DNA of 64,000 bases from an uncultured Eubacteriales bacterium (GCA_905205065.1 CAJLCI010000001.1:124690-188689); one strand, 5' to 3'. Positions 2,212 through 32,775 are shown, counted from the stretch's first letter. The notes: generated from the letters alone by a model not told the origin. Made by a program: numbers and translations.

Positions 2212-2335
2212 AGGAGCATCGCTCCATCATAAGGCGGTCCGGCGGCAGATTGTACCGCCGCCGAAAAAAGTGAGACGAACCCAATGGCTGCAGAGTCAAA
2301 CGCCTGTATAGGCGAGAAACATCCCGCATTTAGGT
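2212..2335 (+). repeat. Copy R1 of the dispersed GC-rich intergenic element
   Basis: It shares an ordered set of motifs with the other copies: gtcata-like, a hairpin with an AGATTGTA loop (cggcgg/ccgccg), ccgaaaaaagtg, a hairpin cgcct-gtat-aggcg, and acatcc. Confidence 0.55.
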
Positions 2336-2388
2336 ATAGTATTGTGATATCCGATAAATCGGATGAAATCTTCCGGAAACGCCGCCGT

Positions 2389-2488
2389 CAATCGATATTC
2401 GTCAATCGATATTCGTCAATCGATGTTCATCAATCAATGTTCATCAATCAATGTTCATCAATATGTACATCAACCAATGCTCATCAAT
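2389..2488. repeat. 14-bp tandem array of about 7 units (caatcgatattcgt and variants)
   Basis: The units are contiguous head to tail with progressive divergence. The array starts about 54 bp after R1. Confidence 0.9.
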
Positions 2489-2612
2489 AAATTTAAGCAG
2501 ACCGGATTTAAATAAAAAAGTACCCGATAAATTACTCACGGTCTGCCATCCTGATACGGCAAACTATTATATACACAAATACACATACCATTTACCGTTT
2601 TAATCCGGCTGG

Positions 2613-4049
2613 CTATATCCTCCTAAATTTTGTTCCCTCTTTTGTATCCTCAAGAATAATTCCCTTTTCAAGAAGCTCTGCGCGTATGCGGTCAGCTTCG
2701 GCATAATTTTTAAGTTTTTTCGCCTCTGCACGAGCTTCTATTTTCGCCAGAATATCGGCGTCGGCATCTCCGTTCGCACCATTGCGATCCGCAAGCAGAC
2801 GCTCCGCAGCTTTTAACAAATCAAGGGAAAGCACAGAATCAAAATCTGCAAGCAGCCGAAGCTTAGACGCGGAGCTACAGCCGGATTTCACAACATCGTA
2901 AAGCGCTGTCACCGCAAGAGACGTATTCAAATCATTATCCATTGCAGCGGCAAACTCCGCGCGCAAAGTGCCGGCTTCTTCCGCATCTGAAGCATCGATC
3001 TTCTCAGGAATTACGGAACAATCCGAAAGCAGAACAGCAATACGGGAAACAAGCTTTTCATACGCTGTTGCGGCATTGTCAAGCGCATCCCACGAAAAGA
3101 CAAGCACTTTTCTGTAATGCGAGCAAAGGCAGAAAAGACGATATACCATCGGATCATATCCTTTTTCACGCAAAAGAGAAACGGTAAGAAATTCTCCACT
3201 TGATTTGCTCATTTTTCCGTCATCGTTATTCAGATGGAAAACATGAAACCAATAATTACACCATTTATGTCCGAGATAGGCCTCGCTCTGGGCAATTTCA
3301 TTCGTGTGATGGGGAAAAGCATTGTCGATCCCCCCGCAGTGAATATCCAGATATTCTCCCAGAGTCGAGATACTTATAGCGGAACACTCGATATGCCATC
3401 CCGGATAGCCAAGTCCCCACGGACTTTCCCATTTCAGCTCCTGATCCTCAAATTTTGATTTGGTAAACCAAAGCACAAAATCGCTTTTATTTCGCTTGTT
3501 GTCGTCGCGCTCTACGCCGTCGCGTACTCCCACCTCAAGATCTTCACTGTCATGCTTATTAAAGACGTAATACTCATCAAGCTTTGAAGTATCAAAATAA
3601 ATATTTCCGCCGGCCTCGTAAGCATATTCTTTTTCAATAAGCCTTCCGACCATTTTTATATAGTCGGATATACGCGAGGTTGCCGGAACCACAGTATCCG
3701 GCCACCGAATATTCAGACTGCCGCAGTCCGAGACAAATGCATCCGTATAATATTTTGCAATTTCCATAACGGTTTTATGCTCTCTCTGCGCGCCTTTAAG
3801 CATTTTGTCCTCACCCTCGTCAGCATCGCTCGAAAGATGTCCGACATCGGTGATATTCATCGTGCGCTTTACGTCAAATCCGATATAACGCAGGTATTTT
3901 TCGAGGACATCTTCCATTATATATGTTCTAAGGTTTCCTATATGAGCAAAATGGTAGACCGTCGGTCCGCATGTATACATTTTTACAATTCCCGGCTCAT
4001 GCGGAATGAATTCGTCTTTTTTTCTTGTAAGAGAATTATAAAGCTTCAT
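2613..4049 (-). CDS. cysS: Cysteine--tRNA ligase
   Basis: The 478-aa ORF carries the class I HIGH-type motif (YHFAHIGNLRTY) and KMSKS, with CysRS family architecture. Confidence 0.95.
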   Translation of the reverse strand: MKLYNSLTRKKDEFIPHEPGIVKMYTCGPTVYHFAHIGNLRTYIMEDVLEKYLRYIGFDVKRTMNITDVGHLSSDADEGEDKMLKGAQREHKTVMEIAKYYTDAFVSDCGSLNIRWPDTVVPATSRISDYIKMVGRLIEKEYAYEAGGNIYFDTSKLDEYYVFNKHDSEDLEVGVRDGVERDDNKRNKSDFVLWFTKSKFEDQELKWESPWGLGYPGWHIECSAISISTLGEYLDIHCGGIDNAFPHHTNEIAQSEAYLGHKWCNYWFHVFHLNNDDGKMSKSSGEFLTVSLLREKGYDPMVYRLFCLCSHYRKVLVFSWDALDNAATAYEKLVSRIAVLLSDCSVIPEKIDASDAEEAGTLRAEFAAAMDNDLNTSLAVTALYDVVKSGCSSASKLRLLADFDSVLSLDLLKAAERLLADRNGANGDADADILAKIEARAEAKKLKNYAEADRIRAELLEKGIILEDTKEGTKFRRI

Positions 4050-4102
4050 TGATTTTTATTTCCTTTCATTTTCCCGACAGTTCAGCGTTTTTTATTCGAG
4101 CC

Positions 4103-5011
4103 TTATTTTTCATAGTTTTTCCTATCCTTATCCACACTCGAAATTCCGGCATTTCCGGAGCAAAAGACACTTCCGTCACCGTGCTCGTATCCTATTTGCG
4201 AATCCGGAAAAATTCCGCGTTTCCTATCATCTTCTTCGTGCGAGGCTTCCTTCTTCTCGTCCGCAAAAGCGGATTCGAGCGCCGCAATGCGCTCTTTAAG
4301 CTGGGCAAGCTCCTGAGCAACCGGATCCGGTATATGCACCTGATCAAGATCCGACTCTTCAACCCTCACACTGCCGCGTTTTACAACATGAGCGGGAATT
4401 CCAACGGCGGTACTGTCCGAAGGAACCTCATGCAGAACTACCGCCCCGGCAGCTATCTTTGAATTATCGCCTATTTTAAACGGTCCGAGAACCTTCGCCC
4501 CGGCACCGACCATCACATTATTACCGAGAGTAGGATGACGCTTACCCGTATGCTTTCCTGTACCGCCGAGAGTAACCCCCTGATACAGAGTGCAGTAATC
4601 GCCAATTTCTGCAGTTTCCCCAATCACAACTCCGGATCCATGATCGATAAAAAGTCCCCTTCCTATTGTAGCTCCGGGATGTATCTCAATACCGGTAAAA
4701 TGCCGGGCAGTCTGACTTATCAGCCGTGCTGCAAATTCATGTCCTCTTTTCTGAAGCGCGTGAGCAACTCTATATGCAGCAACAGCATGAACACCCGAAT
4801 AAAGCAGAATTACTTCTGCCTTGGTTCTGGCAGCCGGATCACGCTCCATAACGGACTCAACGTCGCACTTAAGCTCACTGACGATTCCTCTCGTAAAACG
4901 GTATACTTTTTCAGCTCCTGCCGCAAATCCGCAGCTTTCACGGGATGAGCAGTCTTTGCATTTTATATATATTTTTTTTCTTTTAATATTCTCATTTTCC
5001 GGGATACTCAT
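4103..5011 (-). CDS. cysE: Serine O-acetyltransferase with N- and C-terminal extensions
   Basis: It has the ERDPAA motif and a hexapeptide-repeat core (GIEIHPGATIGRGLFIDHGSGVVIGETAEIG). The start is taken at ATG (MSIPENEN). The ORF track starts 14 codons earlier at a GTG. Confidence 0.85.
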   Translation of the reverse strand: MSIPENENIKRKKIYIKCKDCSSRESCGFAAGAEKVYRFTRGIVSELKCDVESVMERDPAARTKAEVILLYSGVHAVAAYRVAHALQKRGHEFAARLISQTARHFTGIEIHPGATIGRGLFIDHGSGVVIGETAEIGDYCTLYQGVTLGGTGKHTGKRHPTLGNNVMVGAGAKVLGPFKIGDNSKIAAGAVVLHEVPSDSTAVGIPAHVVKRGSVRVEESDLDQVHIPDPVAQELAQLKERIAALESAFADEKKEASHEEDDRKRGIFPDSQIGYEHGDGSVFCSGNAGISSVDKDRKNYEK

Positions 5012-5326: not shown

Positions 5327-5355
5327 TTGACATTTTTTAATTCTTATATTATAAT
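5327..5355 (+). promoter_or_regulatory. Sigma-A-type promoter (TTGACA-17-TATAAT)
   Basis: Both hexamers are perfect and the spacer is 17 bp. The promoter sits about 275 nt upstream of the radical SAM start codon. Confidence 0.65.
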
Positions 5356-5491
5356 TAATATGAGCTGAAATATAAATTGTTCGCCAAATATATCTAATAA
5401 GTGAAATAACCTGGGCCTTGACAGGCGTTTGCCGCTACAGGCAACAGGATGCATTCACTTCTCAGACGGCGGTTTGATCCGTCGCTGAAAT

Positions 5492-5575
5492 GTCTTATGA
5501 CAGAGCTATGCTCCTTACCGAAAAAACGGTCCGGCGGATCATCCCGAAATCTACGTAGGAAATTACTCGACATCT
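5492..5575 (+). repeat. Rearranged or partial copy R0 of the dispersed GC-rich element
   Basis: It shares ggtccggcgg, ccgaaaaaa, ctacgtagg and gacatc with R1-R5, but the order differs partly. Confidence 0.4.
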
Positions 5576-5629: not shown

Positions 5630-7177
5630 ATGCTGAAAAATCTGGGCGGACGCCCTGCGCGAATGCTGCTTGTATATCCCGATTACACAGACAGAGATGC
5701 TTCAAAACGAACAAGCGGCGGTAACTACAGTGAAGGTCTGGCATCAATTTCTGCAGTCCTAAAACAGGGAGGTCATGATGTTAAACTAATGCATCTTCTT
5801 AACCTCCACACCGAGGAAGCCTTTAAATCAAGACTCCGGGAAATGGGTGAATTTGATATTATAGGATTTTCTATCCGAACAACCGCTTTTCCCGACTGCC
5901 AGCTCTATATAAAATGGACAAAGGAAGTATATCCCGACACATTTATAATCTGCGGAAGCTACCATCCGACTCTTGTTCCCGATGAGGTTCTCGCCGTGGA
6001 CGGTGTTGACTGCGTCTGTGTCGGTGACGGAGAATATGCAGAACTTGAGCTCTGCGACAAAATGCGTGATGGAGATGACTACACCGGCGTTCAAAGTCTC
6101 TATTTTAAAATGCCGGACGGTTCATTTAAACATAATCCCATAAGACCTCTCTTCTCAGATTTGGATCAAATTCCGATTCCCGATTTTGACTTATTTGATT
6201 ATGATAACCTTGAATCCTCAAAGGTAGGTACCGCCATTGTAATTGTAAGCCGCGGGTGTTTTTACAACTGCACCTACTGCGGAAACGGAAACTTTCGCAA
6301 AGTATATCCAAACAAAAAAATTTATGCACGTTTCCGCTCTCCTGAGAATGCAATTTTATATCTGAAGACACTGCTTTCAAAGCGTCCTTATATTAAATTT
6401 ATAAACTTCAGGGACGCAATATTCAATATGTTTCCAGACTGGTTTGACACATTTATAGAGATGTATAAAAAAGAAATCGGTCTCCCCTGCACCGGTAACA
6501 TTCGTTTTGACATTCTCACTGAGGAAACTGTCAAAAAGATGAAGGATGCCGGATTTTATACCATAGATATGGGGCTTGAAAGCGGAGATCAGGAGATGCG
6601 TTTCAAATATCTGCGGCGATACCAAACAGATGAAATGATAATCAACTGTTCAAACTGGTTTCACAAATATGGCATATCACAGCTAACTTATAATATAATA
6701 GGTCTGCCGTACGAGGATATTCACAGAGCTCTCAAAACTATTAAATTGAATGCAAAAATCAAAAGCGACAGAGTTATTCCCAATATTTTTTATCCATATG
6801 AAGGAACTCCCCTTTATGAAATTTCAAAAGAAGCGGGTTTCATCCCTGAAGGAGATTTTACAAAACGGCGCGTTCCGTTAATTCAGCCGCAGTTTCCAGA
6901 AGAACAGGTTTTGTTTATAGAAGCATATTTTATGCATTTTGTGCGTCGGTACAAGCTCGCATATAAGCTTCCCGGAAAAATCGGAAAAGCCTATGAACGA
7001 TTTCTTGACTGGCGGGTTACAAATCCTCATGTTCCCTATAGATTTCTTGTGTCTCTGCATGACGGATATACAAAAGTCCGTAACTCGCTCAAGGATTTTC
7101 TAGTAAACCATCTCCCGAAGGTATACATGAAACTGCGTGTAATCAAGCACAGTAAGAGAGCAAGGATTAAAAATTAA
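5630..7177 (+). CDS. B12-binding domain radical SAM protein
   Basis: The N-terminus has a cobalamin-binding-like Rossmann region (LLVYPDY...DIIGFS...GSYHPT). The CxxxCxxC motif (CFYNCTYC) is present. Confidence 0.85.
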   Translation: MLKNLGGRPARMLLVYPDYTDRDASKRTSGGNYSEGLASISAVLKQGGHDVKLMHLLNLHTEEAFKSRLREMGEFDIIGFSIRTTAFPDCQLYIKWTKEVYPDTFIICGSYHPTLVPDEVLAVDGVDCVCVGDGEYAELELCDKMRDGDDYTGVQSLYFKMPDGSFKHNPIRPLFSDLDQIPIPDFDLFDYDNLESSKVGTAIVIVSRGCFYNCTYCGNGNFRKVYPNKKIYARFRSPENAILYLKTLLSKRPYIKFINFRDAIFNMFPDWFDTFIEMYKKEIGLPCTGNIRFDILTEETVKKMKDAGFYTIDMGLESGDQEMRFKYLRRYQTDEMIINCSNWFHKYGISQLTYNIIGLPYEDIHRALKTIKLNAKIKSDRVIPNIFYPYEGTPLYEISKEAGFIPEGDFTKRRVPLIQPQFPEEQVLFIEAYFMHFVRRYKLAYKLPGKIGKAYERFLDWRVTNPHVPYRFLVSLHDGYTKVRNSLKDFLVNHLPKVYMKLRVIKHSKRARIKN

Positions 7178-7949: not shown

Positions 7950-8045
7950 TTGTAAAAACGTTCTACTGTTAAGGCGCTTTGCTGTAATTATTTTCAGCTG
8001 TTAAGGCGTTCACCCGTAAATATTTTCAGTTGTAAAAACGTATGC
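7950..8045. repeat. 16-bp-periodic array of 6 units with a YYGTAA core
   Basis: The units are ttgtaaaaacgttcta, ctgttaaggcgctttg, ctgtaattattttcag, ctgttaaggcgttcac, ccgtaaatattttcag and ttgtaaaaacgtatgc. This amounts to a 32-bp unit repeated twice and flanked by ttgtaaaaacgt. Confidence 0.8.
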
Positions 8046-8419
8046 TTTTAATAAGTTTGACTTTACAAGCGCCAGATACTGCATTTTTCAGTGTGAGTTT
8101 ATTTTCCCACTGAAACGCAAAGAAACTAATACGCCAGTAATACTCCAGGTATAATTACAATCGTTTATAAGATCCGATCCGTGTCTTGCAAACTTGTCGA
8201 AGCGTTACTTAAATTTAAATCAAATTTAATTCTTAACAAACTTTTGAGAATAATCTTCATAACTACAGCAATAATATTAATCAGAACAAGAAGGTCAGAA
8301 AGCAATCTTAGGATCAGCCCGTAATTTCAGGCTACAGAAATTCTGTGGTTTGTATATCCTGCTTCGTTCGTGATATTTCAGTTAATTAAACCCACAATTA
8401 TTAAAAGGAGTCCAATTAC

Positions 8420-8560
8420 AGTTAAGGGATACAGACCTCCCCGGCTGCCCTGAGTTTGAGCCGCTATACGCGTCTCACCACGGCATACCGGGAAGTTGGG
8501 AGTACAAATTGGCAGTGGAGGACACCTACCTTGCGAGAGCAGGGTTTTTAATTGCTGAAT
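8420..8560 (+). ncRNA. Candidate structured RNA or R-element relative upstream of the sipL-like gene
   Basis: Nested pairings cctcc..ctgcc / ggcag.ggagg enclose about 80 nt. A ccttgc-GAGA-gcaggg hairpin followed by a T-run comes next. The 3' part (ggaggacacctaccttgcgag) resembles the R2/R5 3' ends. Confidence 0.35.
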
Positions 8561-8720
8561 ACACGGCGAAGCGGGTTTTTTTATTTTCCATGAATATTTC
8601 CGAACTGTTGTGCATAATATGAAACAAGACCATTTTTTATACAGCAGCTCCGCAACTTACACAGCTTATACTCATCTGCAGTTGCTTTTAGTTATACTTA
8701 TAGTAAAAGGAGAATTCAAA

Positions 8721-10472
8721 ATGGAAACAAAAAAAACGAGCGCAGTGGTAATTCCGCAAGACAATCCTGATTCCGGAATTTCGAGTGTATTTTCCCAATC
8801 TGACAGAAGAGATTGCAGACTTGTCACCGTATGCACAGTTAAGGATGAAAAGGAAGTCAGCGCCGAGATCTCTCTGCCGGATTACTATTCAAATGCAGAA
8901 AAAATACTTTTTGCGACTGCCGCCCCGTCAATAAACGACAAATATGCAGAGGGTGATAAAATTACATACAGCGGCAGCGTTACCTTCACAGTATACTTTA
9001 TAACATCAGAAAACGAGCTAAAATGCATTAGTTTTGACGGAAGCTTTGACGGAGATCCGACAGTCTGCACGCAGGAAAAAGGCGAAGAGGACACCACATA
9101 CACAGTAAATATCTTTCCGATATGCGGTTCTGTATCATACAGGCTGATAGGCCCGAGAAGAATAAGCGCAAAATGCAGGGTAGCCTCCGATATATGCGTA
9201 ACAGCTGAAAGAATATTTGAACCCGATATTTCCGGAGAGGGTGAATATGATACAGCCGTAACGCTTCAAAGAAAAAGCGATTCAGTAAGAACAATTTCCG
9301 AAACAAGCTTTTTTGAAGAAGATCTGAGATTCAGCGATGATATTGAAATTGAAAGCTCACTTCCACCGATTGCCGATATTATTTCATGCAGTATTTCTAT
9401 AATTCCGGAGGAGTGCAAGCAAAACGATGACACAATACAACTACGCGGATCGGTTATAGCGAACTGTCTTTGCATATCGGATACCGGCGAAATCATGTCA
9501 ATTCAAAAGAAGCTACCGATAGCGGAAACATTTGACGCACCCGAAACTGCGTTGGATAGCGACGAAACAAGCTGCTGGGCTGATATTACGGTTGCCGCGG
9601 TTACAGCTGAAGCTGCAGAAAACAGCTTCGGTGAGAAAAAAATTATAGAGCTTGATTTCACATACTCCGTCGAGATATTCTGCGTAACTGAAACAAGCAC
9701 AGAGCTAACCAGAGACATATATTCTACCGAATACAAAACCGACTCAGAATACAGAAAAGTTCCTATCTGCAAATTCAGCAGAATACTGACATCAAACTTT
9801 TCAATAAACGCCAGCACTCCGTTTGAAAGCACGGCGTCCGCATCCATCCAGACATCAGAGCAAAAATCCGGAGACAACGGAGAGGAGCCGGCACTTCTAT
9901 TAACAGAAGCGCCGCGAATTCCTCATGCCCCATCGGTTCTTTATTCTAATGCCTCTATTAAAGAAATGTCATCTGCCTTCGATGAACAAAAGTGTCGGAT
10001 AACAATATCAGGTACTGCAGAAATCTACATGATTATAAACGACAACGGAAATACGCGCGGAATTTGTTTTGAAACTCCGTTTAAAAACGAACTCGACGGG
10101 TACGGAATGACAGGAAACATAATATCTTCCGCTTCCTGTGCCTGCCAGACCGTTCACGGACGTGCCGACACATCTACGGTATATGCAGACTTTGAAGTTA
10201 TATTATACGTCACGGCTTTCTCTGTATCAGACGAAGAAATAATTGATAAGGTAGCCCTTGATAAAGCATCAAAATTCGATCCGATGAGCCGTCCGCCGAT
10301 TTTGATATACTATCCTCACCGCGGAGAAAGTTTATGGGAAATAGCAAAGAAATACAGCACCACGGTAAACGCATTACGAGAGGTAAACCATATACAGGGA
10401 GATGTATCTCCGGATGACTCGGTAATGATTATCCCACGTCATTCGTCTCCGGGAAAGAATTCAAAGAAATAA
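8721..10472 (+). CDS. SipL/SpoVID-like sporulation protein (DUF3794 repeats plus a C-terminal LysM domain)
   Basis: A strong RBS (AAAGGAG) precedes METKKT. The C-terminal LysM reads YYPHRGESLWEIAKKYSTTVNALREVNHI. The architecture matches the clostridial SpoIVA-interacting protein. Confidence 0.65.
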   Translation: METKKTSAVVIPQDNPDSGISSVFSQSDRRDCRLVTVCTVKDEKEVSAEISLPDYYSNAEKILFATAAPSINDKYAEGDKITYSGSVTFTVYFITSENELKCISFDGSFDGDPTVCTQEKGEEDTTYTVNIFPICGSVSYRLIGPRRISAKCRVASDICVTAERIFEPDISGEGEYDTAVTLQRKSDSVRTISETSFFEEDLRFSDDIEIESSLPPIADIISCSISIIPEECKQNDDTIQLRGSVIANCLCISDTGEIMSIQKKLPIAETFDAPETALDSDETSCWADITVAAVTAEAAENSFGEKKIIELDFTYSVEIFCVTETSTELTRDIYSTEYKTDSEYRKVPICKFSRILTSNFSINASTPFESTASASIQTSEQKSGDNGEEPALLLTEAPRIPHAPSVLYSNASIKEMSSAFDEQKCRITISGTAEIYMIINDNGNTRGICFETPFKNELDGYGMTGNIISSASCACQTVHGRADTSTVYADFEVILYVTAFSVSDEEIIDKVALDKASKFDPMSRPPILIYYPHRGESLWEIAKKYSTTVNALREVNHIQGDVSPDDSVMIIPRHSSPGKNSKK

Positions 10473-23023: not shown

Positions 23024-23084
23024 CCGAAACCGCACATACAAAATTAATTCTTCTCAATTTATCACAGTCTCTTTTTATTCAATA

Positions 23085-23212: not shown

Positions 23213-23266
23213 AGTCATATTCTCAAAAAACTTCCGACAGAAAATCCGGCATAACAAACCGTTTTT

Positions 23267-23308
23267 CAATTTATTTCTGTCAATTTATTTCTGTCAATTT
23301 ATTTCCGT
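23267..23308. repeat. 14-bp tandem array of 3 units (caatttatttctgt)
   Basis: The units are contiguous. The array begins about 55 bp after R3, the same spacing as R1 to its 14-bp array. The unit is 9/14 identical to the 2389 array unit. Confidence 0.85.
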
Positions 23309-23347
23309 CAGCTTTTGTCGACGGTCTAAAAATCCGCTGACACATTT

Positions 23348-24007
23348 CTATCCCTGTTTTTCTGCAGAAGCAAGCCATTTAATCAAGTCCGTCTTCTCAT
23401 ATGCGCTTGTCCATGCATCATGACCTACATTATCAAATATCGTAAGCTCGGCATGCCCATGCGCAGCATTCACTGTATCAACCATCAGCTTTGAATATTC
23501 AACAGGAACAATAAAATCGTCGCTTCCGTGAAATGCTCTTATCGGCATTTTAACAAGCGCAGATGCGCGCCACGTCATCCCTCCTCCGCATATCGGAGCC
23601 GCAGCGGCAAAATAATTATAGTACTCACATGCCATTTCCCATGTACCAAATCCGCCCATGGAATTTCCGGTTATAGTTATGCGGTTTTTATCAATATTCA
23701 GCTCACTTGAAACAATTTCAATTAAATTCATAAGCTGAGCGGTAACTCCGTTCCAGATTCTGTCCCACGGGCACTGCGGAGAAAGCGTAATAACGCGCAG
23801 TCCGAGATAATCCTGATCTCCACAAAAATATTTCGGAATTCCATGGGTTTTAACCATTTCAATGTTATCTCCGGACTCGCCTACTCCGTGCAGGTATACA
23901 ATAAGAGGCAAAGATTCCTTTGCCGGATGAAATCCGGATGGAGTAGTAACTATATAACTAAGCTTTGAAAAGCTGTCTTTTACAAATGAGGTTGACGTTC
24001 TGACCAT
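23348..24007 (-). CDS. Alpha/beta hydrolase (carboxylesterase/phospholipase family)
   Basis: It has LIVYLHGVGESG and the nucleophile elbow GNSMGG. The ORF is 219 aa. Confidence 0.75.
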   Translation of the reverse strand: MVRTSTSFVKDSFSKLSYIVTTPSGFHPAKESLPLIVYLHGVGESGDNIEMVKTHGIPKYFCGDQDYLGLRVITLSPQCPWDRIWNGVTAQLMNLIEIVSSELNIDKNRITITGNSMGGFGTWEMACEYYNYFAAAAPICGGGMTWRASALVKMPIRAFHGSDDFIVPVEYSKLMVDTVNAAHGHAELTIFDNVGHDAWTSAYEKTDLIKWLASAEKQG

Positions 24008-24065
24008 GATAATTTTAACCTTTCAGTATTATTTAATTTTTCTCTGTTTAATAAACAAGGGTAAA

Positions 24066-24160
24066 GATCCGTCATAAGCCGTTCCTGCAACGGATCGCGT
24101 CTGCTATCTGAAAAAGTAAGCGAAACCGCCGCTTATAGAGACAAACGCCTTTATATACGG
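24066..24160 (+). repeat. Copy R4 of the dispersed GC-rich intergenic element
   Basis: It carries ccgtcataag, ctgaaaaagtaagcg and ccgccgcttatagag. Confidence 0.45.
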
Positions 24161-24177
24161 GAAAATCTCAAAATCGG

Positions 24178-25554
24178 TTATATTATCTCAATTCCGAGCA
24201 AACCGCAAAGCATTGCAATTTCTTTAGTATTATCTCCGTATGAAATAATATAATGCTGGCACATAACCTTGTCTGTAAAGTCCTCAACATCGTCAAGAAC
24301 AATCTCAAGTCCCGGAAGCTGAGGAGCCGGCTGCGTCCAGCCTGCCTCTTCCCACTTTCTGGGCGTTACACCATGTCCCTTAACCATATGCATAACATAT
24401 TTATCACCGATCTGAGCCAAACGGCACATGGTTACCATACCAGGTTTAACTTTTGAGACATTAAGGATTCCCTCTGACAAAGCACCGAAGGCTGCCGGCA
24501 TAGCAACTACACCGCTTTCAGTAACCTCGGCAGGAACATAATCCGGAACTCCGGCAAGCACACGATCTGAGAAAAATTCATAAAATTCAAGATAAGCCGC
24601 CGCCTGTCCTGTAATATATTTAACCATAAGCTGCGTAACATTTCCGAGACAATCATTTTCCGGAATTGTACACACACCCGAAATATCGGAAAGAAGCATG
24701 AAAACCGGTGCAGGCGGAAAACCGAGAAGCTTCTTCATTCCGTCAACATCTTTAAGAGAAATTGCATCATATCCGCGCTCTTTTATAAGCTTATCTACTG
24801 CAATATAATAGCCGGCCGCTTTCATAAGTCCATCGTCTGACGGCTCAGAAAGGAAATTCCAAGCTTTTATCTCCCTTCCACCGACATTTCCGCCCTGTTT
24901 GACGGCATTTACCACCGCTCTCCTGGCATCGTCGGACACCTTTTCACTTCTTTGAAAGACCTCAAGCAACTCAAATGTTTCAATTTCAGGTCCGATTACA
25001 CGTTTTAAAGACGGACCATCCGCCTGAGTACCGTAGAGATTCATATCACGGTATCCGGCCATACCCACCCTGGCATGACGAAGCCTTCCTGCTGCAGACG
25101 CCGCGCGGCAATACGCTGCGACACGATCTACTCTTGACGGAAGTCCGATAATATCATATATGTACTTAAAATTATATCCGAGGTCACACATTGTTTTGCG
25201 AAGTGCGCTCGTTCCGGCCTGATCCGCGGTCGTAACAAGACGACCGTCTTCCATCCAGCCGCACAAGCCCCAGAGAACCATCGGCTTATATCTGTAATGC
25301 TCCGCAATTTTTATTACAGCATGCGTAGGAATCCATCCTGCAATGCACAGAACAAGACAATCAAAATCATCTTTTTTCAGTACCTCAAGAGCATGGGCAA
25401 TATCATTTTCCTCATAGTCGTCGGTTACCGGATAAACGCTTACTGCAGAAATTCCCTCTTTTTCAAGACTTTCAAAAGCGTCACTGCACTTTTTAACGAT
25501 TATATCTTTAGGAGTATTTACCTCGCCAAAGCCAACAAAACCTGCTTTTACCAT
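24178..25554 (-). CDS. L-fucose/L-arabinose isomerase family protein (COG2407-like)
   Basis: The 458-aa ORF has an N-terminal Rossmann-like region (AGFVGFGEVNTP...) and the length and layout of the fucose isomerase-related family. Confidence 0.65.
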   Translation of the reverse strand: MVKAGFVGFGEVNTPKDIIVKKCSDAFESLEKEGISAVSVYPVTDDYEENDIAHALEVLKKDDFDCLVLCIAGWIPTHAVIKIAEHYRYKPMVLWGLCGWMEDGRLVTTADQAGTSALRKTMCDLGYNFKYIYDIIGLPSRVDRVAAYCRAASAAGRLRHARVGMAGYRDMNLYGTQADGPSLKRVIGPEIETFELLEVFQRSEKVSDDARRAVVNAVKQGGNVGGREIKAWNFLSEPSDDGLMKAAGYYIAVDKLIKERGYDAISLKDVDGMKKLLGFPPAPVFMLLSDISGVCTIPENDCLGNVTQLMVKYITGQAAAYLEFYEFFSDRVLAGVPDYVPAEVTESGVVAMPAAFGALSEGILNVSKVKPGMVTMCRLAQIGDKYVMHMVKGHGVTPRKWEEAGWTQPAPQLPGLEIVLDDVEDFTDKVMCQHYIISYGDNTKEIAMLCGLLGIEII

Positions 25555-25763
25555 TTTTAATTACCATTCCTTTCGTTTAACCATACCCAAAAAGCTTTTT
25601 ACCGCCTCAGATTCCTAAAAATACCGGATATTCCTGTAGCAGGTACAGTATAGAGTTTTACACACCGCACCGAATATAATGAACCGTGCCGGCATTCTCT
25701 TTGCATCTGTTTTATTTTCACATCTGCAGCATTTCACGCTGTCTTTCGACATGTTATTCCCCG

Positions 25764-27272
25764 CTATTTCCCGGACGGATAAAGCTTCTCATCTGCTTCT
25801 ATATATCTGTGATAAGCTGCCTCTGTTTTTTCATTCTGATTTGGAACATAAACTTTATCAGTTCTGACAATTCTATCACACGCAGCCTCGACAGACTTAA
25901 AAATTCCGGCTCCCATACCCGCAAGAATCGCGGTTCCAAGACATGCAGTTTCAGTATTTTTCAGCGTTGCAAGCCGAACACCTGTAATATCTGCTTTTAT
26001 TTGACACCAGAGCGAACTTGACGCGCCTCCGCCCATAGTTCTGATTTCATCACAAGACACATCCAAATATTCAAGAGTACTACGAAGCATACAGGCAACG
26101 GATTCAAGAATTGCACGTACCATATGTCCGCGCGTATGCTCCATCGTAAGTCCGTAAAATACTCCTCTCGCATCAGGATTATATTTCGGCATCGTTGAAC
26201 CGCAAAGATACGGAATGAACACAAGTCCACTGCATCCTGGCTCTACCTTGTCAGCAAGCCTGTCAAGCTCCTTGAACGAGAAGCTTTCACAAAGCTGATT
26301 TTTAAACCATTTAAGTGCAATGCCTGCCGTCGGCGTCCATGAAAGCAAGGCATAGCTTCCGTCATAATTTATATGACACGGAATAATACTGTCCGGACTA
26401 TACGGAGGAATTTCGCTTACAGGTGCAAATACAGCCATAGTAGTCCCGGTCATCTCGCTGATTACTCCGGAACCTACAACTCCTGCACCGATCGCACCGG
26501 AAATCTGATCAAGCGCCCCGGAAACAACAGAAATACCGCAGCCACAGCTTTTACCAGCCTCTCCTCCGCCAAAAAACCAGTCCGTGTCCATTGCGCCGAC
26601 TTTCACACCTGAAGGTACAATCTCCGAAAATACTGTGATATCAAGTCCAATGTAACTGAGCATTTCCGCCCACCATTGTTTTTTACAAATATCAAAGTAA
26701 ATTGTCGAAGACTGAATTGTCGGCTCGGTTACAGTCTTTCCGGTAAGAGCCCATAAAATCCAGTCCTCAAGCAGGAAAACATGCCTTATACGATTAAATA
26801 CCGCAGGCTCGTTTCCACGTATCCACATCAGCTTACAAGCAGGCCATGTTGCTGTGATTTCCGGCTGCCCGGTAACTCGGTACACGAGTTCATGTCCAAA
26901 ATCCGCCTCAATTTTCTTTTCTTCTGCGTCCGCACGGTTATCAAGCCATACAATTGCCGGACGAAGAGGAGCAAAATTTTCATCTGTAACTATCAGAGTT
27001 TCACCCTGAGTATCTACCGAAAGTCCAGCTATAATCTCCGTCAGCTTATCTTTATCGCAGTCAGGAAATGCAATTCGAGCGGCTTCAGTAAGAGACCTTC
27101 TTACAATTGAAATATATTCAAGAGCATCAAATTCGACAAGGCTTCCCTTTGTATCGAGAGTATAATCAATCGTTGACGAAGAAACCATATTTCCGTCTGT
27201 ATCAAAAATTGCGGTTTTCAGCGACGTAGTTCCTATATCAATCCCGACCAAATATTTTTTTCTGTCTGTCAT
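25764..27272 (-). CDS. FGGY-family carbohydrate kinase
   Basis: It has LVGIDIGTTSLK and the FGGY C-terminal motifs (GGGASS..W). The start is taken at MTDRKKY, just after the upstream gene's stop. Confidence 0.85.
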   Translation of the reverse strand: MTDRKKYLVGIDIGTTSLKTAIFDTDGNMVSSSTIDYTLDTKGSLVEFDALEYISIVRRSLTEAARIAFPDCDKDKLTEIIAGLSVDTQGETLIVTDENFAPLRPAIVWLDNRADAEEKKIEADFGHELVYRVTGQPEITATWPACKLMWIRGNEPAVFNRIRHVFLLEDWILWALTGKTVTEPTIQSSTIYFDICKKQWWAEMLSYIGLDITVFSEIVPSGVKVGAMDTDWFFGGGEAGKSCGCGISVVSGALDQISGAIGAGVVGSGVISEMTGTTMAVFAPVSEIPPYSPDSIIPCHINYDGSYALLSWTPTAGIALKWFKNQLCESFSFKELDRLADKVEPGCSGLVFIPYLCGSTMPKYNPDARGVFYGLTMEHTRGHMVRAILESVACMLRSTLEYLDVSCDEIRTMGGGASSSLWCQIKADITGVRLATLKNTETACLGTAILAGMGAGIFKSVEAACDRIVRTDKVYVPNQNEKTEAAYHRYIEADEKLYPSGK

Positions 27273-27286
27273 ATACATCATATCCG

Positions 27287-27991
27287 TTACGCCTTGTGCT
27301 TCTCGTCCCATGCAGCGCGCAGAGCGTGAATCATTTCTTCAACCATTGCAGCCGGATCATCCGCGCAGAAAATACCGCTTGTACTGCCTGTCGCCTCCGC
27401 ACCGAGCATAATTGTATCATAAACATCCTGACCATTTTTTATTCCCGCTCCCTGAAGCACCATAATATCAGGATTAATTTCTCTCACGCTCTTTATCGTC
27501 TGAGTGACATAATTTTCATCGCTTGTCTTCCCTGTTCCTATAAGCTCCGTTGGCTCCGCAACGAGAAGATTCGGAGAAAGCTTTGCAATTGCCATAAGCT
27601 CATCTACCGTATCAGCGCACACAATTGTCCCAAGACCCACCTCGTCTGCACGTGCAATCGTTTTTTCAATTTCATCAAGAGTCAGCTTACATTCAGCATG
27701 ATTCAGCATTACGCCTTCCGCTCCGGCCTCTTTTACCGCCTCCGGAAGAACCGAGCCGAGTCCGCGACCGGGACGAAGATAATCCATATGCTGTGCAAAA
27801 ACATGAATACGCTCGGTATTGTCCGCAATCATCTTAATATCTGTGTAAACAGGTGTAACAAGAATATCCACATCATATTTTAAAGCGACGCGGTCAATAG
27901 CCTTAGCAAGCTCCAGCATCTTTTCTCCGTACATATAACATTTCGGACCTATCTCAAAAAACGGAGGTTTAATTTTGAATCCACTGTACAT
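27287..27991 (-). CDS. Triosephosphate isomerase family protein (short, archaeal-like type)
   Basis: The ~235-aa TIM-like protein carries LNHAE, AEPTELIGTG and GAGI. The start is taken at MYSGFK. The ORF track starts 22 codons earlier. Confidence 0.7.
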   Translation of the reverse strand: MYSGFKIKPPFFEIGPKCYMYGEKMLELAKAIDRVALKYDVDILVTPVYTDIKMIADNTERIHVFAQHMDYLRPGRGLGSVLPEAVKEAGAEGVMLNHAECKLTLDEIEKTIARADEVGLGTIVCADTVDELMAIAKLSPNLLVAEPTELIGTGKTSDENYVTQTIKSVREINPDIMVLQGAGIKNGQDVYDTIMLGAEATGSTSGIFCADDPAAMVEEMIHALRAAWDEKHKA

Positions 27992-28200
27992 ATACAAAAA
28001 CCATTCCTTTCGGATGAAATCAATTACAAGCAATATTAAATTTATACCAAACAACAATATTGTGCGGCGTAGAGCTGCAAAGCTGCCGTTACAGGCGGAA
28101 ACAAAGCTTGCTAATCTCAGTCTGTAACTTTGATATTATTATATCATAAAAAGTCTCTGAAAACAAGTAAAGTCATCAATTATAAATATATAAACATTTT

Positions 28201-29163
28201 TTACGACTTATTTAAGTTCTCAGATTCAAGCTTTTTTATCATCAGCTTTGTTTTACGGAAATGCAGAAATACGGGTAAACTGACAATGACAATGAGCAAA
28301 ATTATCGCGAGAACTATCAGAATTATATCGGCATATTTGGGAAAACTCTCTCCGAGTATTGCACTGGTTCCTCCCCTGTAAGCGTTTGAAACCGTAGCTA
28401 TACTGCTCTCTCCGCCGTACGCCTCAGCGGTACTGAGAGAATCGGAGCTTTCCCCGGTCTGCAGATCCACCTTTTCAAGCAAAAGAGATTTTCCGTAATA
28501 AAGAACAGCTCGTCCCGGTTCTGTTTCTGCTCTAATCTCAGAAGCAATAATACGAAGAGTTCCGGCGGCAGAAACAGCAGCATTTGAAAAAACACTTCCT
28601 CCGGTTATCTGTACCGTGCCTCCTGTTATCCCCGTTCCGTTTGAACTGTTTGAAACGGCAATGTCTGTATTTCCGCCTACTATACTGATAACTCCGCTGT
28701 CAAAACGAATTCCGCTGCGCCCTGCTGTAATCGAAATATCCCCGCTGCGAATTTTAATTTCTTTGTTCATAGCCGTTGAATAACTGTATATTCCATCACC
28801 GTCTGTCACTATAGTAAGCGATCCGTCCCCGGTGATTATAAAACCGCCCTGACCCGCAAGCGCGTATTCAGACGCCGAAATGTAATTTTGCCCGAAAAGC
28901 TTTACCGTTGCTCCGTCTATAAGTTTAATTCCGTATTCATCATCGGTATTGACATTTATTCCGTTGAGTTCAAGTATATTTTCGCGGTTGTTCCAGTAAT
29001 AGCCCTCTCCGCTTATGTTTTTCTGAGGTCTTGTAAGGTCGAGAGTTTCTCTGATTACTCCGGACGATACCGATTCCGCAGAAAAACAAATAGAAAATAA
29101 AACGGCGGCAACGACCGAAAATAAAAAGACGGCGGCATATTTTATGAAACGATTATTCTTCAT
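28201..29163 (-). CDS. Surface protein with beta-helix-like G/S/T/I repeats, an N-terminal signal and a C-terminal TM anchor
   Basis: A signal peptide is present. Repeated I.GG..I / ITGG motifs follow, and a hydrophobic segment (ADIILIVLAIILLIVIVSLPVFL) lies near the C-terminus. Confidence 0.5.
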   Translation of the reverse strand: MKNNRFIKYAAVFLFSVVAAVLFSICFSAESVSSGVIRETLDLTRPQKNISGEGYYWNNRENILELNGINVNTDDEYGIKLIDGATVKLFGQNYISASEYALAGQGGFIITGDGSLTIVTDGDGIYSYSTAMNKEIKIRSGDISITAGRSGIRFDSGVISIVGGNTDIAVSNSSNGTGITGGTVQITGGSVFSNAAVSAAGTLRIIASEIRAETEPGRAVLYYGKSLLLEKVDLQTGESSDSLSTAEAYGGESSIATVSNAYRGGTSAILGESFPKYADIILIVLAIILLIVIVSLPVFLHFRKTKLMIKKLESENLNKS

Positions 29164-29373
29164 ATATGTACTAACCTCTCAGTTTACATTCAATATTTAA
29201 ATCCCGTCTTAATAAGACTCCGATAAAAATCTGCAACCAGAATTACTCCTGCAAAGCAATTTTAATATATTTAAGTATATCATGCACATTAAAAAAAATC
29301 AAGAAGTTAAGATACCATTATTTAATTATAATGTAAATTTTTTAGCTGTTTCTAAATACCTCCGCTCAAAGCC

Positions 29374-29402
29374 TTGACTTTAAATAAAAAAACAAATATA
29401 AT
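29374..29402 (+). promoter_or_regulatory. Sigma-A-type promoter (TTGACT-17-TATAAT)
   Basis: The hexamers were read directly and lie upstream of the VanZ-like gene. Confidence 0.55.
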
Positions 29403-29465
29403 AATTACAATATCAGCATATATATAATGTTGGAACTAAAATATATTTTGGCACTGGAGAACTGC

Positions 29466-30005
29466 ATGAATCCGATATATAAGCATAATAAAACACCAGA
29501 CAGAAAAAACGTCGGGCTCACGGAACACAGCGGATTCAGAATAATTCTGTCGGTCCTTATCATCATCACCCTGATTTTTATCTGGACAAATTCAATTCAA
29601 AACGGTACCGAGTCAAATGCGCAAAGCGACCGTATTGTCACCCGGCTGAAGCCGATTATTGATCCGAAGAATAAAATAGATATTGACGATTTATCATTTG
29701 TGATCCGCAAAGCCGCGCATTTTTGCGAGTATTTTCTTCTCGGCGCGGAGCTTTGTCTTTTTTTCTATTCATTAAAAATAAAAGAAATTTTCGGCTCTCC
29801 GTTTCTTGTACTCATGAGCGCCGTAATCGATGAAACGATTCAGCTTTATCACGAGAGGACCTCAAGCGTCACGGATATAATTCTCGACTTTTGCGGCGGA
29901 CTATGCGGCATTTGTATAATGATTATAATAGTCATCTTGTGTACTCAATTTTCAGAAAAAAGAAAATTGCGGGTAAATTCCTCAAAATATCCTGAAAATA
30001 ATTAG
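29466..30005 (+). CDS. VanZ family membrane protein
   Basis: RKAAHFCEYFLLG and DETIQLY are VanZ-like motifs. The start is taken at MNPIYK, which has a GGAGA RBS. Confidence 0.7.
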   Translation: MNPIYKHNKTPDRKNVGLTEHSGFRIILSVLIIITLIFIWTNSIQNGTESNAQSDRIVTRLKPIIDPKNKIDIDDLSFVIRKAAHFCEYFLLGAELCLFFYSLKIKEIFGSPFLVLMSAVIDETIQLYHERTSSVTDIILDFCGGLCGICIMIIIVILCTQFSEKRKLRVNSSKYPENN

Positions 30006-30126
30006 ATTTCAGAATATTTATGTTATTTAATTTGAGCATAATAATAATAGGCTAATATAAATATTTAAGAACAATACACAGCCGATAAGTTAATTTAATA
30101 AGTTTTTGACAATATCGGAGAATGAA

Positions 30127-31140
30127 ATGAACATAAATCTTCTCAAAAATCAAATATCGAGGATCGCGGCGATAGCCTTCTCAGTTTGTATTACAGCTGT
30201 GATTATTTCAGCGGCAGACGGAGTTCCCGCAGGACAAACAGAAAAACTTATAAGAGAAGTTCCGTCAGGTTCTCCTGATATAAACGGTATAATAGAGCGG
30301 GGAGAATGGTCCGAGTCAAACAAAATTGTTATGAATGAAAATACCTGCACAGCCTCTCCCTGGAGCGGAAGTATCGAAAGCTCGGCAGACGTATATTTTC
30401 TCTGGGATGAAGACGGATTATATATTGCTGCCAAAATAACGGATTTGACAGAAGCATATTCATCTGAAAAAAGTCCGGAAAGCGTTTTGTCGGGAGATGC
30501 ACTTCAACTCGGTCTAAATCCGGGAATGTTGATTACCGGAGGTCATCCAGGAGAGTTTTTCACTTTTTCTTTACCTGCCGACGCAAAGAAAAATTCTCCG
30601 TCGCCGCTGTACATCATCAGACAAAACTACGCTGATTATAACGGAATCGGAAGCTCGGCAGGAGGAGAACTGATAGACGAAAAATGCTATAAAGCGACCG
30701 GACAAAAAGTTTCGAACGGATGGCAATTTGAGTGTTTCCTTGCATGGAATCAGGTAAACACCGTCGGAATTAACAGCCAGAATCCTATATGCGAAGCGCT
30801 GTCAGATCCCAATTTTTCATCGGCAAGCACACTGATTCCCGAAAATGGATTATCTTTTGGATTTATGCTCTGTTACCTTGACAGACCAGGCAGTTCCGGT
30901 AACTTTACTACCGGTTCAGGCCTTGGATTTAATGTTGAACATTACGGAGGAATACTGACTCTTATCGAAAACGTAATCGAATACAATGCAAAAAGTTCGC
31001 CTGCTCCGGGAACTTTTGACCTTACTATTCCAATCATCTGTATTTTCATTATATCCTCATCAGCTTCTCTTATGATTCGAAAAAAACTAAAAAATAATCA
31101 TCATTTGCCCAATTATTCATACCATAAAAGGGTAATATAA
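30127..31140 (+). CDS. Secreted, membrane-anchored carbohydrate-binding (CBM9-like) protein
   Basis: It has a signal/TM segment, the motifs DGIIERGEWSES and VYFLWDEDGLYIAAKITD, and a C-terminal TM helix. Confidence 0.5.
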   Translation: MNINLLKNQISRIAAIAFSVCITAVIISAADGVPAGQTEKLIREVPSGSPDINGIIERGEWSESNKIVMNENTCTASPWSGSIESSADVYFLWDEDGLYIAAKITDLTEAYSSEKSPESVLSGDALQLGLNPGMLITGGHPGEFFTFSLPADAKKNSPSPLYIIRQNYADYNGIGSSAGGELIDEKCYKATGQKVSNGWQFECFLAWNQVNTVGINSQNPICEALSDPNFSSASTLIPENGLSFGFMLCYLDRPGSSGNFTTGSGLGFNVEHYGGILTLIENVIEYNAKSSPAPGTFDLTIPIICIFIISSSASLMIRKKLKNNHHLPNYSYHKRVI

Positions 31141-31143
31141 TAT

Positions 31144-31186
31144 CACAGCCGGTAATTTGCATAAGTAAATTTACCGGCTGTGTTTT
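31144..31186 (+). terminator. Intrinsic terminator
   Basis: The stem cacagccggtaa.tt/aaatttaccggctgtg is followed by TTTTG. Confidence 0.7.
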
Positions 31187-31209
31187 GTAGTTTTATTCAA
31201 TAAGATGCA

Positions 31210-31318
31210 TAGCCCCGTCATAGGGTGTTTCGGTGACAGATTGTACTACCTCCGAAAAAAGTGCGCTGATCCCGCCGCCTACAGCGGCGAATGCCTCCTT
31301 TAATTTCGGAGGACATAT
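31210..31318 (+). repeat. Copy R2 of the dispersed GC-rich intergenic element
   Basis: It carries cgtcataggg, a hairpin with an AGATTGTA loop, ccgaaaaaagtg, the hairpin cgccgc-ctaca-gcggcg, and ggaggacat. Confidence 0.55.
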
Positions 31319-31367
31319 ATCATTCAATTATATAGTTGTTACACGGTCAGGAGTTATGCACAAATTT

Positions 31368-32183
31368 TCAATCTCCGCTGCAAAACCTTGAATCTCCGTA
31401 ATATATCCAATAACAATCTTCATAATCAGAATATTCTTTTGCATATGTCAAAATGGCAAAAAGCAAAATCACCCTTTGCACTCCAAACAGTTCATAAACC
31501 TTGACATTTTCACCATCAATGTTTACCTGCTTTACTAAAAATAATTTACTTTTTATAAAATTTTCCTCAAGAGCATCAGAATCGGAAATTCCACACATGG
31601 TGCACAGAGATGATAATGTAAAAGACGTCATATTATTTTTTATAACAGTCTGCAGAGCATTACGAAAATCGCGGTCAATAAGCATATTCAGAATTTCCTC
31701 CGCCCCGGCATCGGTAAGAAGACTGCTCCACCCTTTTTCAGGTCTTTTTAAAGCGATTTCTCCGATTTCGTCACGTAAATAAACTACACCGTGCGGATGG
31801 ATTACGGTGCTTCTTAATTTTTTGTTTGACTTCATTCTTTCAACATAATTATCCAGTTTTTCAATTTCTAAAAAAGGCTCATTAAAATTATCTGCACCAC
31901 CACAAGCCGAAAGTATTACTTGACATACAGAACGATAAGCGGCATCAAAAACAGCATCTGAAGATGTGGCGCTACACGGAGAGCTGCGCCTTCCGTAAAG
32001 CATATCGACAGTTACACCAAAAGTGTCGGCAATTATCGGAAGCAGCATTATATCAGGCATATTAGTATTATTTTCCCATTTAGAAACCGATTTCGCTGAA
32101 ACACCTACTATAGCTGCAAACTCCTCCTGTGTCATTGATTTTTGTTTGCGAAGCTCTGCAATTCTTTCTCCGATTGTAGCCAT
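31368..32183 (-). CDS. XRE-family HTH transcriptional regulator with a C-terminal domain of unknown function
   Basis: The N-terminal HTH_3 region reads IGERIAELRKQKSMTQEEFAAIVGVSAKSVSKWE. Confidence 0.8.
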   Translation of the reverse strand: MATIGERIAELRKQKSMTQEEFAAIVGVSAKSVSKWENNTNMPDIMLLPIIADTFGVTVDMLYGRRSSPCSATSSDAVFDAAYRSVCQVILSACGGADNFNEPFLEIEKLDNYVERMKSNKKLRSTVIHPHGVVYLRDEIGEIALKRPEKGWSSLLTDAGAEEILNMLIDRDFRNALQTVIKNNMTSFTLSSLCTMCGISDSDALEENFIKSKLFLVKQVNIDGENVKVYELFGVQRVILLFAILTYAKEYSDYEDCYWIYYGDSRFCSGD

Positions 32184-32689
32184 AAAAAACACCATTCCTT
32201 TCTTTTCATTTGCACCTGCATATACATAAGAGACATGAAAAAAGTATACTTTAAATTACAGATTACTTACTTTTCACGTTAATATTCTCGCCTTTATCTA
32301 TATAAAGGCTTCCTCTCCTTTTTCTATATTTCAGGCAACGTCTTTCAATGCATTTAAAGAATCCACTGGATATATATTCTGTGCTTAAATTCTAACAATA
32401 TTTACAGAAACAGTCTACATAGCAATAAGAGACTTTATCTCTTAAACGGATACATAAAATCCGAACCATTCATTTATCCCGACATCCATAACAAAGCGGA
32501 TAAACATTACAAAACACTTAACTTAAACATCAGATTTCGCACTATCGTCGATAATAAAGCCGTATGTATATATATCAAAGTAATTACAGTTGCATACGGA
32601 GTCAATACCGATAAGTATAATTATAATGCCGAGACAAACATTATCTGTTCTAACAGTCATAATAATTCTTTTCAATAAAAGGCATGACT

Positions 32690-32775
32690 CTGTCATTATG
32701 CATTCCTATAGTGTACTGTGCCGCCTAAAAAATAAGCGGAAGCCGCCGCCTGTAAAGGCGTAGGACATCCTTGCA
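32690..32775 (+). repeat. Copy R5 of the dispersed GC-rich intergenic element
   Basis: It carries ctgtcattatg, cctaaaaaataagcgg, the hairpin cgcct-gtaa-aggcg, and taggacatccttgcaag. Confidence 0.5.

Follow-up and report, generated by a model that had tools for sequence, protein, structure and literature searches.

A hairpin-rich interspersed repeat family in the intergenic DNA of gut Clostridia

A 64,000-nucleotide (nt) stretch of DNA from an uncultured Eubacteriales bacterium (GCA_905205065.1 CAJLCI010000001.1:124690-188689; the window) contains seven copies, c1 to c7, of a previously uncatalogued, hairpin-rich element of 30–230 nt. The element occurs in many copies between genes of gut Clostridia, in relatives of Ruminococcus and Oscillospiraceae. 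It is a new family within the known class of interspersed repeats; its fold and insertion mode are unusual. A non-autonomous mobile repeat accounts for the data better than a dedicated regulatory RNA does, and the element is probably a modular, REP/BOX-like mobile interspersed repeat of the Oscillospirales. We favour this reading because the element has sharp ends, precise species-specific insertions, deletion derivatives that keep both ends and tandem copies, and because its neighbours are unrelated, its taxonomic distribution is patchy and it is present in phage-like contigs.

Identification of the family

Five main copies had been proposed in a first-pass annotation of the window, and all five are real. 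The covariance model (CM) R1, built on alignment A6 of eight copies (five from the window, c1–c5, and three from other genomes), scores c1–c5 at 60.8–111.2 bits (E 3e-12 to 3e-24). c1 and c4 are 73% identical across 101 nt. R1 also locates c6 at 5389–5526 (62.8 bits), although this copy was outside the training set. The weaker relatives that had been suggested fared less well. A real copy, c6, does lie near 5492–5575, but that interval clips only its 3′ end; the region 8420–8560 belongs to a 6S RNA gene and is not a copy of the element; and 34992–35050 contains no copy, the adjoining sequence being the weak copy c7. No convincing R1 match was found in 36–64 kb of the window. Overall, most window copies are old, short or degenerate representatives of the family. 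The first-pass annotation had named two results that would count against a family, a lack of further copies and a similarity no better than that of shuffled sequence; on both points the outcome favoured a real family, with more than 130 further copies found elsewhere.

The sense strand of the element reads 5′-TATAAC...CCTTATTGAA-3′ and is the minus strand for c1–c5 and c7 and the plus strand for c6. The motif order given originally is thus the reverse complement of the natural 5′ to 3′ order, ‘gtcata’ being the complement of (A)ATGAC and ‘(g)gacatcc’ that of GGATGTC. No family in Rfam 15 matches the element. A gathering-score scan of the whole window returned the 6S RNA only, and E-value scans of 22900–33000 and of three loci from other genomes (L001–L003) gave nothing over any copy. 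The core sequences of the element were not found in the literature searched.

Anatomy and predicted fold

The ends of the element are sharp, 5′-(TAT)AAC...CCTTATTGA(A)-3′, and the flanks are unconserved up to TATAAC and right after TTATTGAA. At the core lies an invariant unit, the 3′ hairpin AAUGA-C-GGNGC-loop-GCNCC-UUAUU. The form met most often has about 147 nt and consists, in order, of TATAAC, the 5′ strand of helix P1, ATGTCC, hairpin A (HpA, CCCGCC-loop-GGCGGCGGG), UUCCAU, hairpin B (HpB, 10–16 bp with the loop AUACAAUC), hairpin D (HpD), the 3′ strand of P1, (AC)GUUGAAUGAC, hairpin C (HpC, GGGGC-AAG-GCCCC) and UUAUUGAA. In the full-length module, located between TATAA and TGAC, the covarying helix P1 is predicted to close a junction of HpA, HpB and HpD, giving a four-way junction, with HpC as the 3′ hairpin.

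The earlier observation that conserved loops sit on variable but complementary stems holds, with compensatory changes in both the hairpin with the UACAAU loop and the 3′ hairpin. In c6, the loop of HpB is UUUGAU and the stem is fully compensated. From 28 long forms, aligned independently with MAFFT, RNAalifold recovered HpA, HpB, HpD and HpC, with double compensatory changes at 12 pairs. In the CM alignment, which leans towards structure because it is fitted to the model, 114 cells are changed on both sides of a pair, compared with 26.6 ± 5.4 in shuffles (0 of 500 shuffles reach 114). In this alignment, 93.5% of cells are paired, and sliding the partners by 1–3 columns gives 12–29 double changes. 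The complementarity of P1 is kept across subfamilies (GGCAAG/CTTGCC, GACAAG/CTTGTC, ACGACTG/CAGTCGT, ACGACTT/AAGTCGT and GTGAACGG/CTCGTTCAC). Intact copies have a predicted minimum free energy of −74 to −86 kcal/mol, with z about −9 (a 146-nt example gives −74 and z = −8.7), and the predicted fold is the P1-closed junction plus HpC. The outer stem of HpC has a G.U pair that is almost invariant (84 of 88 and 28 of 28 sequences). The fold is strand-specific, because this pair would become a C.A mismatch on the other strand; its invariance implies a strand-specific, single-stranded form.

Derivatives keep both ends of the element. They include short forms of 120 nt, internal-deletion forms of 63–88 nt and forms of 185–230 nt with extra hairpins. 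The smallest is a solo hairpin of 29 nt, TATAATGACGGGGCAAGCCCCTTATTGAA, which was found 16 times, mostly in two genomes. At 3078–3180 of locus L100, two such solos stand inverted around a 56-nt terminator-like hairpin, the sole REPIN-like tight doublet.

Two other roles for parts of the element were considered and rejected. HpC is not an intrinsic terminator: its stem has 4–5 bp only, its U-tract takes part in base pairing, and c2 and c4 are each followed by a real terminator of their own. TATAAC is not a −10 promoter box, as the flanks are random and carry no conserved −35 or TG motif upstream.

Insertion sites and fate of copies

The window and the corresponding locus of a sister species (L012, MGYG-HGUT-00386; 92% CysS identity) are syntenic across 16 kb and provide two clean pairs of filled and empty sites. 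In the first, L012 has a copy at 1172–1329, and the empty window site at about 14706 reads ...GACGTTTTTAT^ATCATGTCTG... (TTTTTAT^ATCATG, the caret marking the junction). In the second, c6 is the filled site, and the empty site at about 8650 of L012 reads ...CGCCGAATAT^AAAAACAG... (GAATAT^AAAAAC). In both pairs, the inserted segment runs from AAC or ATC to ...TTGA and lies between TAT and A, with no bases duplicated. TAT is already present in both empty sites, and its T, A and T are conserved at 85%, 92% and 95% at the junction. Judged from these two pairs, insertion was precise, at TAT^A in AT-rich intergenic DNA and with no target duplication. The comparisons for c1 and c4 are too diverged to define the junction. 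c1, together with the neighbouring tandem array, is missing from L012, where the orthologous spacer has 36–75 nt and no element. c4 is present in L221 (104.5 bits; 94% DusB identity) and absent from L219 (88% DusB identity), where the site has 42 nt.

Other orthologous sites document what happens to copies later. At the c3 site, a mini-version of 35 nt is present in the sister species L215. At the c5 site, L221 has a tandem pair (5641–5788 and 5848–5959) as compared to the single window copy; c5 combines the 5′ end of the first L221 element with the 3′ part of the second and thus may have arisen by recombination or deletion between tandem copies. The copy between rplQ and dusB is common to three species and has decayed unequally (26.2 bits in the window, 28.6 in L221 and 41.7 in L219/L220). 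A degenerate remnant at 8041–8128 of the window is orthologous, by synteny, to a better-preserved copy in L012 (6069–6197). These comparisons show that, after insertion, copies are inherited, decay, recombine or suffer internal deletions.

For 10 of 57 upstream genes on the same strand, the TAA stop codon lies inside TATAAC, just as insertion at T^AA would give. Examples are ecfA1 in L001 (about 2949–2954) and the fucose-isomerase-like gene 24178–25554 of the window, whose stop is in the TATAAC of c3 (24177–24182). The median distance to a downstream start codon on the same strand is 50 nt, and the distance is often within about 60 nt.

Distribution

The family is present in at least 53 species-level genomes of Clostridia, often in multiple copies per genome. 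The 3′-hairpin pattern TGACGGNGCN{2,3}GCNCCTTATTGAA matched at least 119 loci in GTDB representative genomes. Among the matches listed, 51 genomes were counted by contig names, with up to 11 loci in one metagenome-assembled genome (MAG), and the labels were Ruminococcus, Oscillospiraceae, Acutalibacteraceae, Ruminiclostridium, Eubacteriales, Acetivibrio and others of this kind. With R1, 93 copies were located in loci L092–L191, 27 in L192–L212 and six in L012; L001–L003 were recovered by degenerate patterns. In total, 156 core hairpin units were located across 126 loci, and all are intergenic. The density is about one copy per 5–9 kb in parts of the window and of the sister-species loci. The cultured isolate Acetivibrio sp. 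MSJd-27 has four copies within 8 kb.

The distribution is patchy. L012, with its six copies in 21 kb, is the sole carrier among 80 loci anchored on cysS; the other 79, from family-level relatives (1.19 Mb; 65–71% CysS identity), have no R1 match at E <= 1. The exact pattern AGATTGTACN5CCGAAAAAAGTG has no match in GTDB representative genomes, and the source genome is therefore not among them. In JGI metagenome contigs, the pattern TTTTCGGNGGNNGTACAATCTG gave chance matches only, in an unrelated estuarine gene. Blastn of the element against GenBank phages and PLSDB plasmids gave no match. Two IMG/VR predicted viral contigs, both matched by the 3′-hairpin pattern, carry full-length copies of the ACGACTT subfamily (L211, 12466–12612; L212, 828–974 and 9190–9336), and flanking sequence is common to two of these three copies. 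The viral-contig copies are a possible route of horizontal spread.

High-scoring copies were also located beside DUF951-prfA and beside an S1-domain gene in a MAG labelled ‘uncultured Bacteroides sp.’ (L003, CAZYDW010000022; L180, CAZYDW010000012). The gene context is Clostridia-like, and this bin is probably mislabelled or contaminated.

Orientation and gene context

All window copies had been thought to read in the plus orientation regardless of the direction of the flanking genes. This is wrong, because every window copy points as its neighbouring gene or genes do: c6 is on the opposite strand, and 7 of 7 copies are co-oriented with the adjacent gene(s). Gene calls across the loci, made by a codon-score method, place 38 copies between co-directional genes in sense and 16 in antisense orientation, a bias and not a rule. 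Several antisense copies are flanked by long, high-scoring open reading frames (ORFs). In the window and L012, every informative copy is sense. Pfam annotation gives functionally unrelated neighbouring genes, and some copies have no downstream gene.

The window plus strand has a negative GC skew throughout, and six of the seven copies have the top strand on the G-rich (leading-sequence) strand. Across the loci, 46 of 74 cases have the top strand on the strand that is G-rich locally (46 to 28), a preference that is inseparable from gene orientation at the 8-kb scale.

Copies and other features of the window

The coordinates of the copies (refined limits for c1–c5), their subparts and neighbours are collected in Table 1. 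Two 5′ hairpins are present in each of c1, c4 and c6; erosion is seen in c3 and c7. Two of the short tandem-repeat arrays lie 50–65 nt 5′ (sense) of c1 and c2, with units that contain ATTGAC(G/A), resembling a −35 box. The arrays are absent from the orthologous spacers of the sister species L012 and L215. Five-codon (15-nt) tandem repeats make up a C-terminal extension of ribosomal protein L17, which has 200 amino acids in the window as compared to 191 in L221 and 161 in L219.

Table 1. Copies of the element and other features located in the window (UTR, untranslated region; HTH, helix-turn-helix)
Feature	Position	Strand	Length (nt)	Score	Form and subparts	Context
c1	2205–2338	minus	134	CM 109.2 bits	TATACC 2333–2338; 5′ hairpin 2301–2314; HpB 2238–2266 (loop UACAAU); HpC 2207–2232; end TTATTGAA 2205–2212	neighbours cysS 2613–4049 and solute-binding-protein gene 634–2199 (true start ~2161)
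c6	5389–5522	plus	134		strand opposite to other six; TATATC 5389–5394; hairpins 5415–5426 and 5429–5444; HpB 5460–5490; HpC 5495–5520	5′ UTR of B12-binding radical-SAM gene 5630–7177 (plus), downstream of TTGACA-17-TATAAT promoter ~5328–5356
Remnant	8041–8128	plus		CM 21.1 bits, E 0.004–0.011	degenerate, HpB retained	
6S RNA gene	8353–8581	plus		RF00013, 59.7 bits (gathering score 46.4), E 2.5e-9	54-nt insertion centrally	directly upstream of ORF 8610–10472
c2	23078–23219	minus	142	CM 73 bits; fold z = −6.3	HpC enlarged via 28-nt insertion	3′ UTR of esterase gene 23348–24007, upstream of bidirectional terminator
c3	24048–24182	minus	135	CM 60.8 bits	degenerate	between fucose-isomerase-like gene and esterase gene
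c4	31196–31332	minus	137	CM 111.2 bits	best preserved; TATAAT 31327–31332; ATGTCC 31311–31316; extra hairpin 31294–31312; HpA 31273–31289; HpB 31228–31257; HpC 31198–31223	3′ UTR of HTH gene 31368–32195, upstream of terminator
c5	32671–32782	minus	112	CM 88.8 bits	HpB partly deleted	downstream of class-IV aminotransferase gene 32841–33761
c7	35053–35174	minus		CM 26.2 bits, E 2e-4	weak, degenerate	between rplQ 35206–35808 and dusB 33799–34833
Intrinsic terminator	~22985–23020	both			strong, bidirectional	between convergent genes, directly downstream (sense) of c2
Intrinsic terminator	~31146–31186	both			strong, bidirectional	between convergent genes, directly downstream (sense) of c4
Tandem-repeat arrays	2388–2488; 22846–22990; 23266–23310; 57875–57995; 60431–60544				short; units of 14–19 nt, 3–7 copies	intergenic
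L17 repeat extension	35216–35368	minus			C-terminal	within rplQ

Discussion

The first-pass annotation had placed the element among REP/BOX/MITE-like structured repeats. This stands in that the family is multicopy and strictly intergenic, has sharp ends and covarying stems, and varies in presence between sister species. [quoted passage not shown] Like Correia and RUP elements, the repeat is small, non-coding, intergenic, multicopy and insertion-polymorphic and also occurs in phage-like contigs. However, TATAACTTAGG... at one end is not an inverted copy of ...CCTTATTGAA at the other, and neither of the two clean filled and empty pairs (two sites only) has a TSD. The element is not a MITE because it has neither TIR nor TSD.

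The resemblance to REP/BIME (REPIN)-RAYT systems lies in the minimal unit, an extragenic, multicopy, GC-stemmed imperfect palindrome whose 29 nt fall in the 20–40-nt range of REPs, with a lineage-specific sequence, located mostly after genes or between co-directional genes, plausibly co-transcribed and with stems kept by compensatory change. In classical REPs, one end bears an unpaired tag, GTAG or CGTC (PMC3733652), whereas the stem of our element has (A)ATGAC before it and TTATTGAA after it. Bacillota are absent from the main text of that survey of tagged REPs. Inverted doublets, the usual arrangement of REPINs, are rare in our family, with five opposite-strand neighbour pairs within 3 kb among the 156 units, of which one is tight (the L100 pair with its 56-nt gap). 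Most copies carry an additional four-way-junction module of 90–120 nt, and no RAYT flanked by copies was seen in the approximately 2 Mb of fetched loci. The modular build, with internal hairpin modules in variable number between constant ends and very stable predicted RNA folds, recalls two intergenic repeats of Firmicutes, BOX of Streptococcus pneumoniae and bcr1 of the Bacillus cereus group, which measure about 100–200 nt and are co-transcribed with their neighbours. There is no sequence similarity to either; the P1-closed junction and the solo hairpin are peculiar to our element, and bcr1 is flanked by a TTTAT duplication, whereas our element makes none.

Once in place, the element would be transcribed together with its neighbours, and its very stable hairpins may influence the processing or stability of mRNA. 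An enzyme acting in trans would catalyse its movement and would recognise the top strand, once folded, as a single-stranded nucleic acid; the nearest mechanistic model is a Y1/HUH transposase of the IS200/IS605-RAYT type. Transposition of IS200/IS605 involves subterminal hairpins and a flanking target tetranucleotide and makes no duplication (PMC6006769). Our element, like IS200/IS605 and its ORF-less derivatives (PATEs), has no TIR and no TSD and is inserted directly 3′ of a short conserved flank, TAT; as in IS200/IS605, a hairpin lies close to each end, at about 20 nt on the left and about 8 nt on the right, the fold is strand-specific and the element is asymmetric. An HUH-type enzyme is proposed because of this combination; as a specific mechanism it is tentative, possible rather than probable. 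The element differs from IS200/IS605 in that the target appears to be only 3–4 nt, TATA being palindromic, in that a solo with a single hairpin also multiplies, and in that no TnpA/TnpB partner was found in the fetched loci.

Several points weigh against a mobile repeat, or against the mechanism proposed for it. The fetched loci contain no transposase or autonomous parent, and a crude Y1/HUH motif search by regular expression gave no match in them. When matches of the 5′-end and 3′-end hidden Markov models were paired in search of a parent, the sole long pair (L196, 1.85 kb) enclosed ptsH-ptsI; inverted pairs enclose rimO-like, epimerase and protease genes. HpA (CCGCC/GGCGG) and HpC (GGGGC/GCCCC) are unrelated, a misfit with IS200/IS605, in which the left and right hairpins are alike and bound by one TnpA. 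Copies a few kb apart often face opposite ways, which differs from IS200/IS605, with its orientation tied to the lagging-strand template, and speaks against strictly replication-directed insertion. The target and the lack of a TSD are concluded from two clean site pairs only. Finally, the elaborate junction with its conserved loop, retained in many genera, exceeds the needs of simple REP or MITE mobility and hints at a role at the RNA level.

Such a role would be primary if the element were a functional RNA, either a small RNA gene or a cis-acting element for mRNA processing, stability or protein binding, whose fold is kept by selection and whose dispersal is secondary. The strong covariation of the stems, the conserved junction sequences, the AUACAAUC loop of HpB and the strand-specific fold given by the invariant G.U pair all agree with this, as do the sense bias, the positions in 5′ UTRs, operon spacers and 3′ UTRs, and the rplQ-dusB orthologues kept in three species. 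We nevertheless consider it unlikely: copies show no association with gene function, about 30% of the informative ones are antisense, many are degenerate, truncated or interrupted by insertions, and presence varies between sister species. Moreover, there is no conserved upstream promoter, HpC is a poor terminator with separate real terminators after c2 and c4, and Rfam has no matching family. Another reading, in our estimate distinctly unlikely, is that of a mobile structured RNA module in place of a passive repeat. The P1-closed junction with its conserved HpB loop would then do the work of an unrecognised mobility system guided or catalysed by RNA (omega-RNA-, bridge-RNA- or ribozyme-like), or of a widespread protein-binding regulatory RNA, and would have spread in gut Oscillospirales and their phages by precise TAT^A insertion without duplication. 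The copies might also be ORF-less derivatives that retain the guide-RNA scaffold or ribozyme of a transposon system, such as the omega-RNA of TnpB/IscB or the bridge RNA of IS110. A complex multi-helix fold that stops a few nt before the right boundary, precise insertion beside TAT without TSD, as for IS200/IS605-type elements, and the copies in predicted viral contigs are what such a system might leave. This is highly improbable, as no TnpB, IscB or IS110 gene lies beside any copy in the fetched loci, Rfam gives no match to HEARO or another transposon-associated RNA, and the 29-nt solos multiply without any scaffold.

Two readings tied to proteins or to single genes deserve hardly any credence. 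A small protein of 35–45 codons (MSPASIGGG...VQS...NDGA..LIE) could be drawn on the sense strand, as c1 and c4 share an open frame (...LFS..VQS...PYDGAM.LIE) with differences at third positions of the PYDGAM codons, and the short forms L159, L180 and L145 have an ATG-initiated frame through the whole element. However, c2, c3, c5, L001 and L002 have in-frame stops or frameshifts, long forms stop after 6–20 codons because the length of the HpA loop varies, and there is no ribosome-binding site upstream of the ATG. The ‘silent’ wobble base of a Gly codon covaries with the second base of a downstream codon and is therefore a hairpin signature, not a protein one. The small ORF is thus rejected family-wide, with variation that follows hairpin pairing and not codons. 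A riboswitch or cis-regulatory leader of the downstream gene was likewise rejected. Several copies (c6, L002, L003) do lie in 5′ UTRs just before a start codon, but the genes behind the copies are unrelated in function (solute-binding protein, radical-SAM, esterase, ecfA2, DUF951-prfA, FAD oxidoreductase), c2 and c4 have no downstream gene, antisense copies exist, and neither an expression platform nor an Rfam match was found.

A mobile repeat, the reading we favour, places the family beside the REP-, BOX- and MITE-type repeats, which have been studied thoroughly in Proteobacteria, in pneumococci and within the Bacillus cereus group. Such repeats are essentially undescribed in the uncultured Ruminococcus and Oscillospiraceae lineages that dominate gut and rumen metagenomes. 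A covariance model of the element would remove recurrent false calls of novel small RNAs, riboswitches and small ORFs in these genomes, and strains could readily be typed, and phage contigs assigned to their hosts, with the element as a marker. Precise insertion at TAT^A with neither TIR nor TSD, together with the elaborate covarying fold, points to a mobilisation system, so far not described from Clostridia, that would recognise single strands. Located in UTRs and operon spacers and a source of stop codons, the element probably influences how mRNAs are structured, how operons are expressed and where MAG assemblies of these bacteria break.

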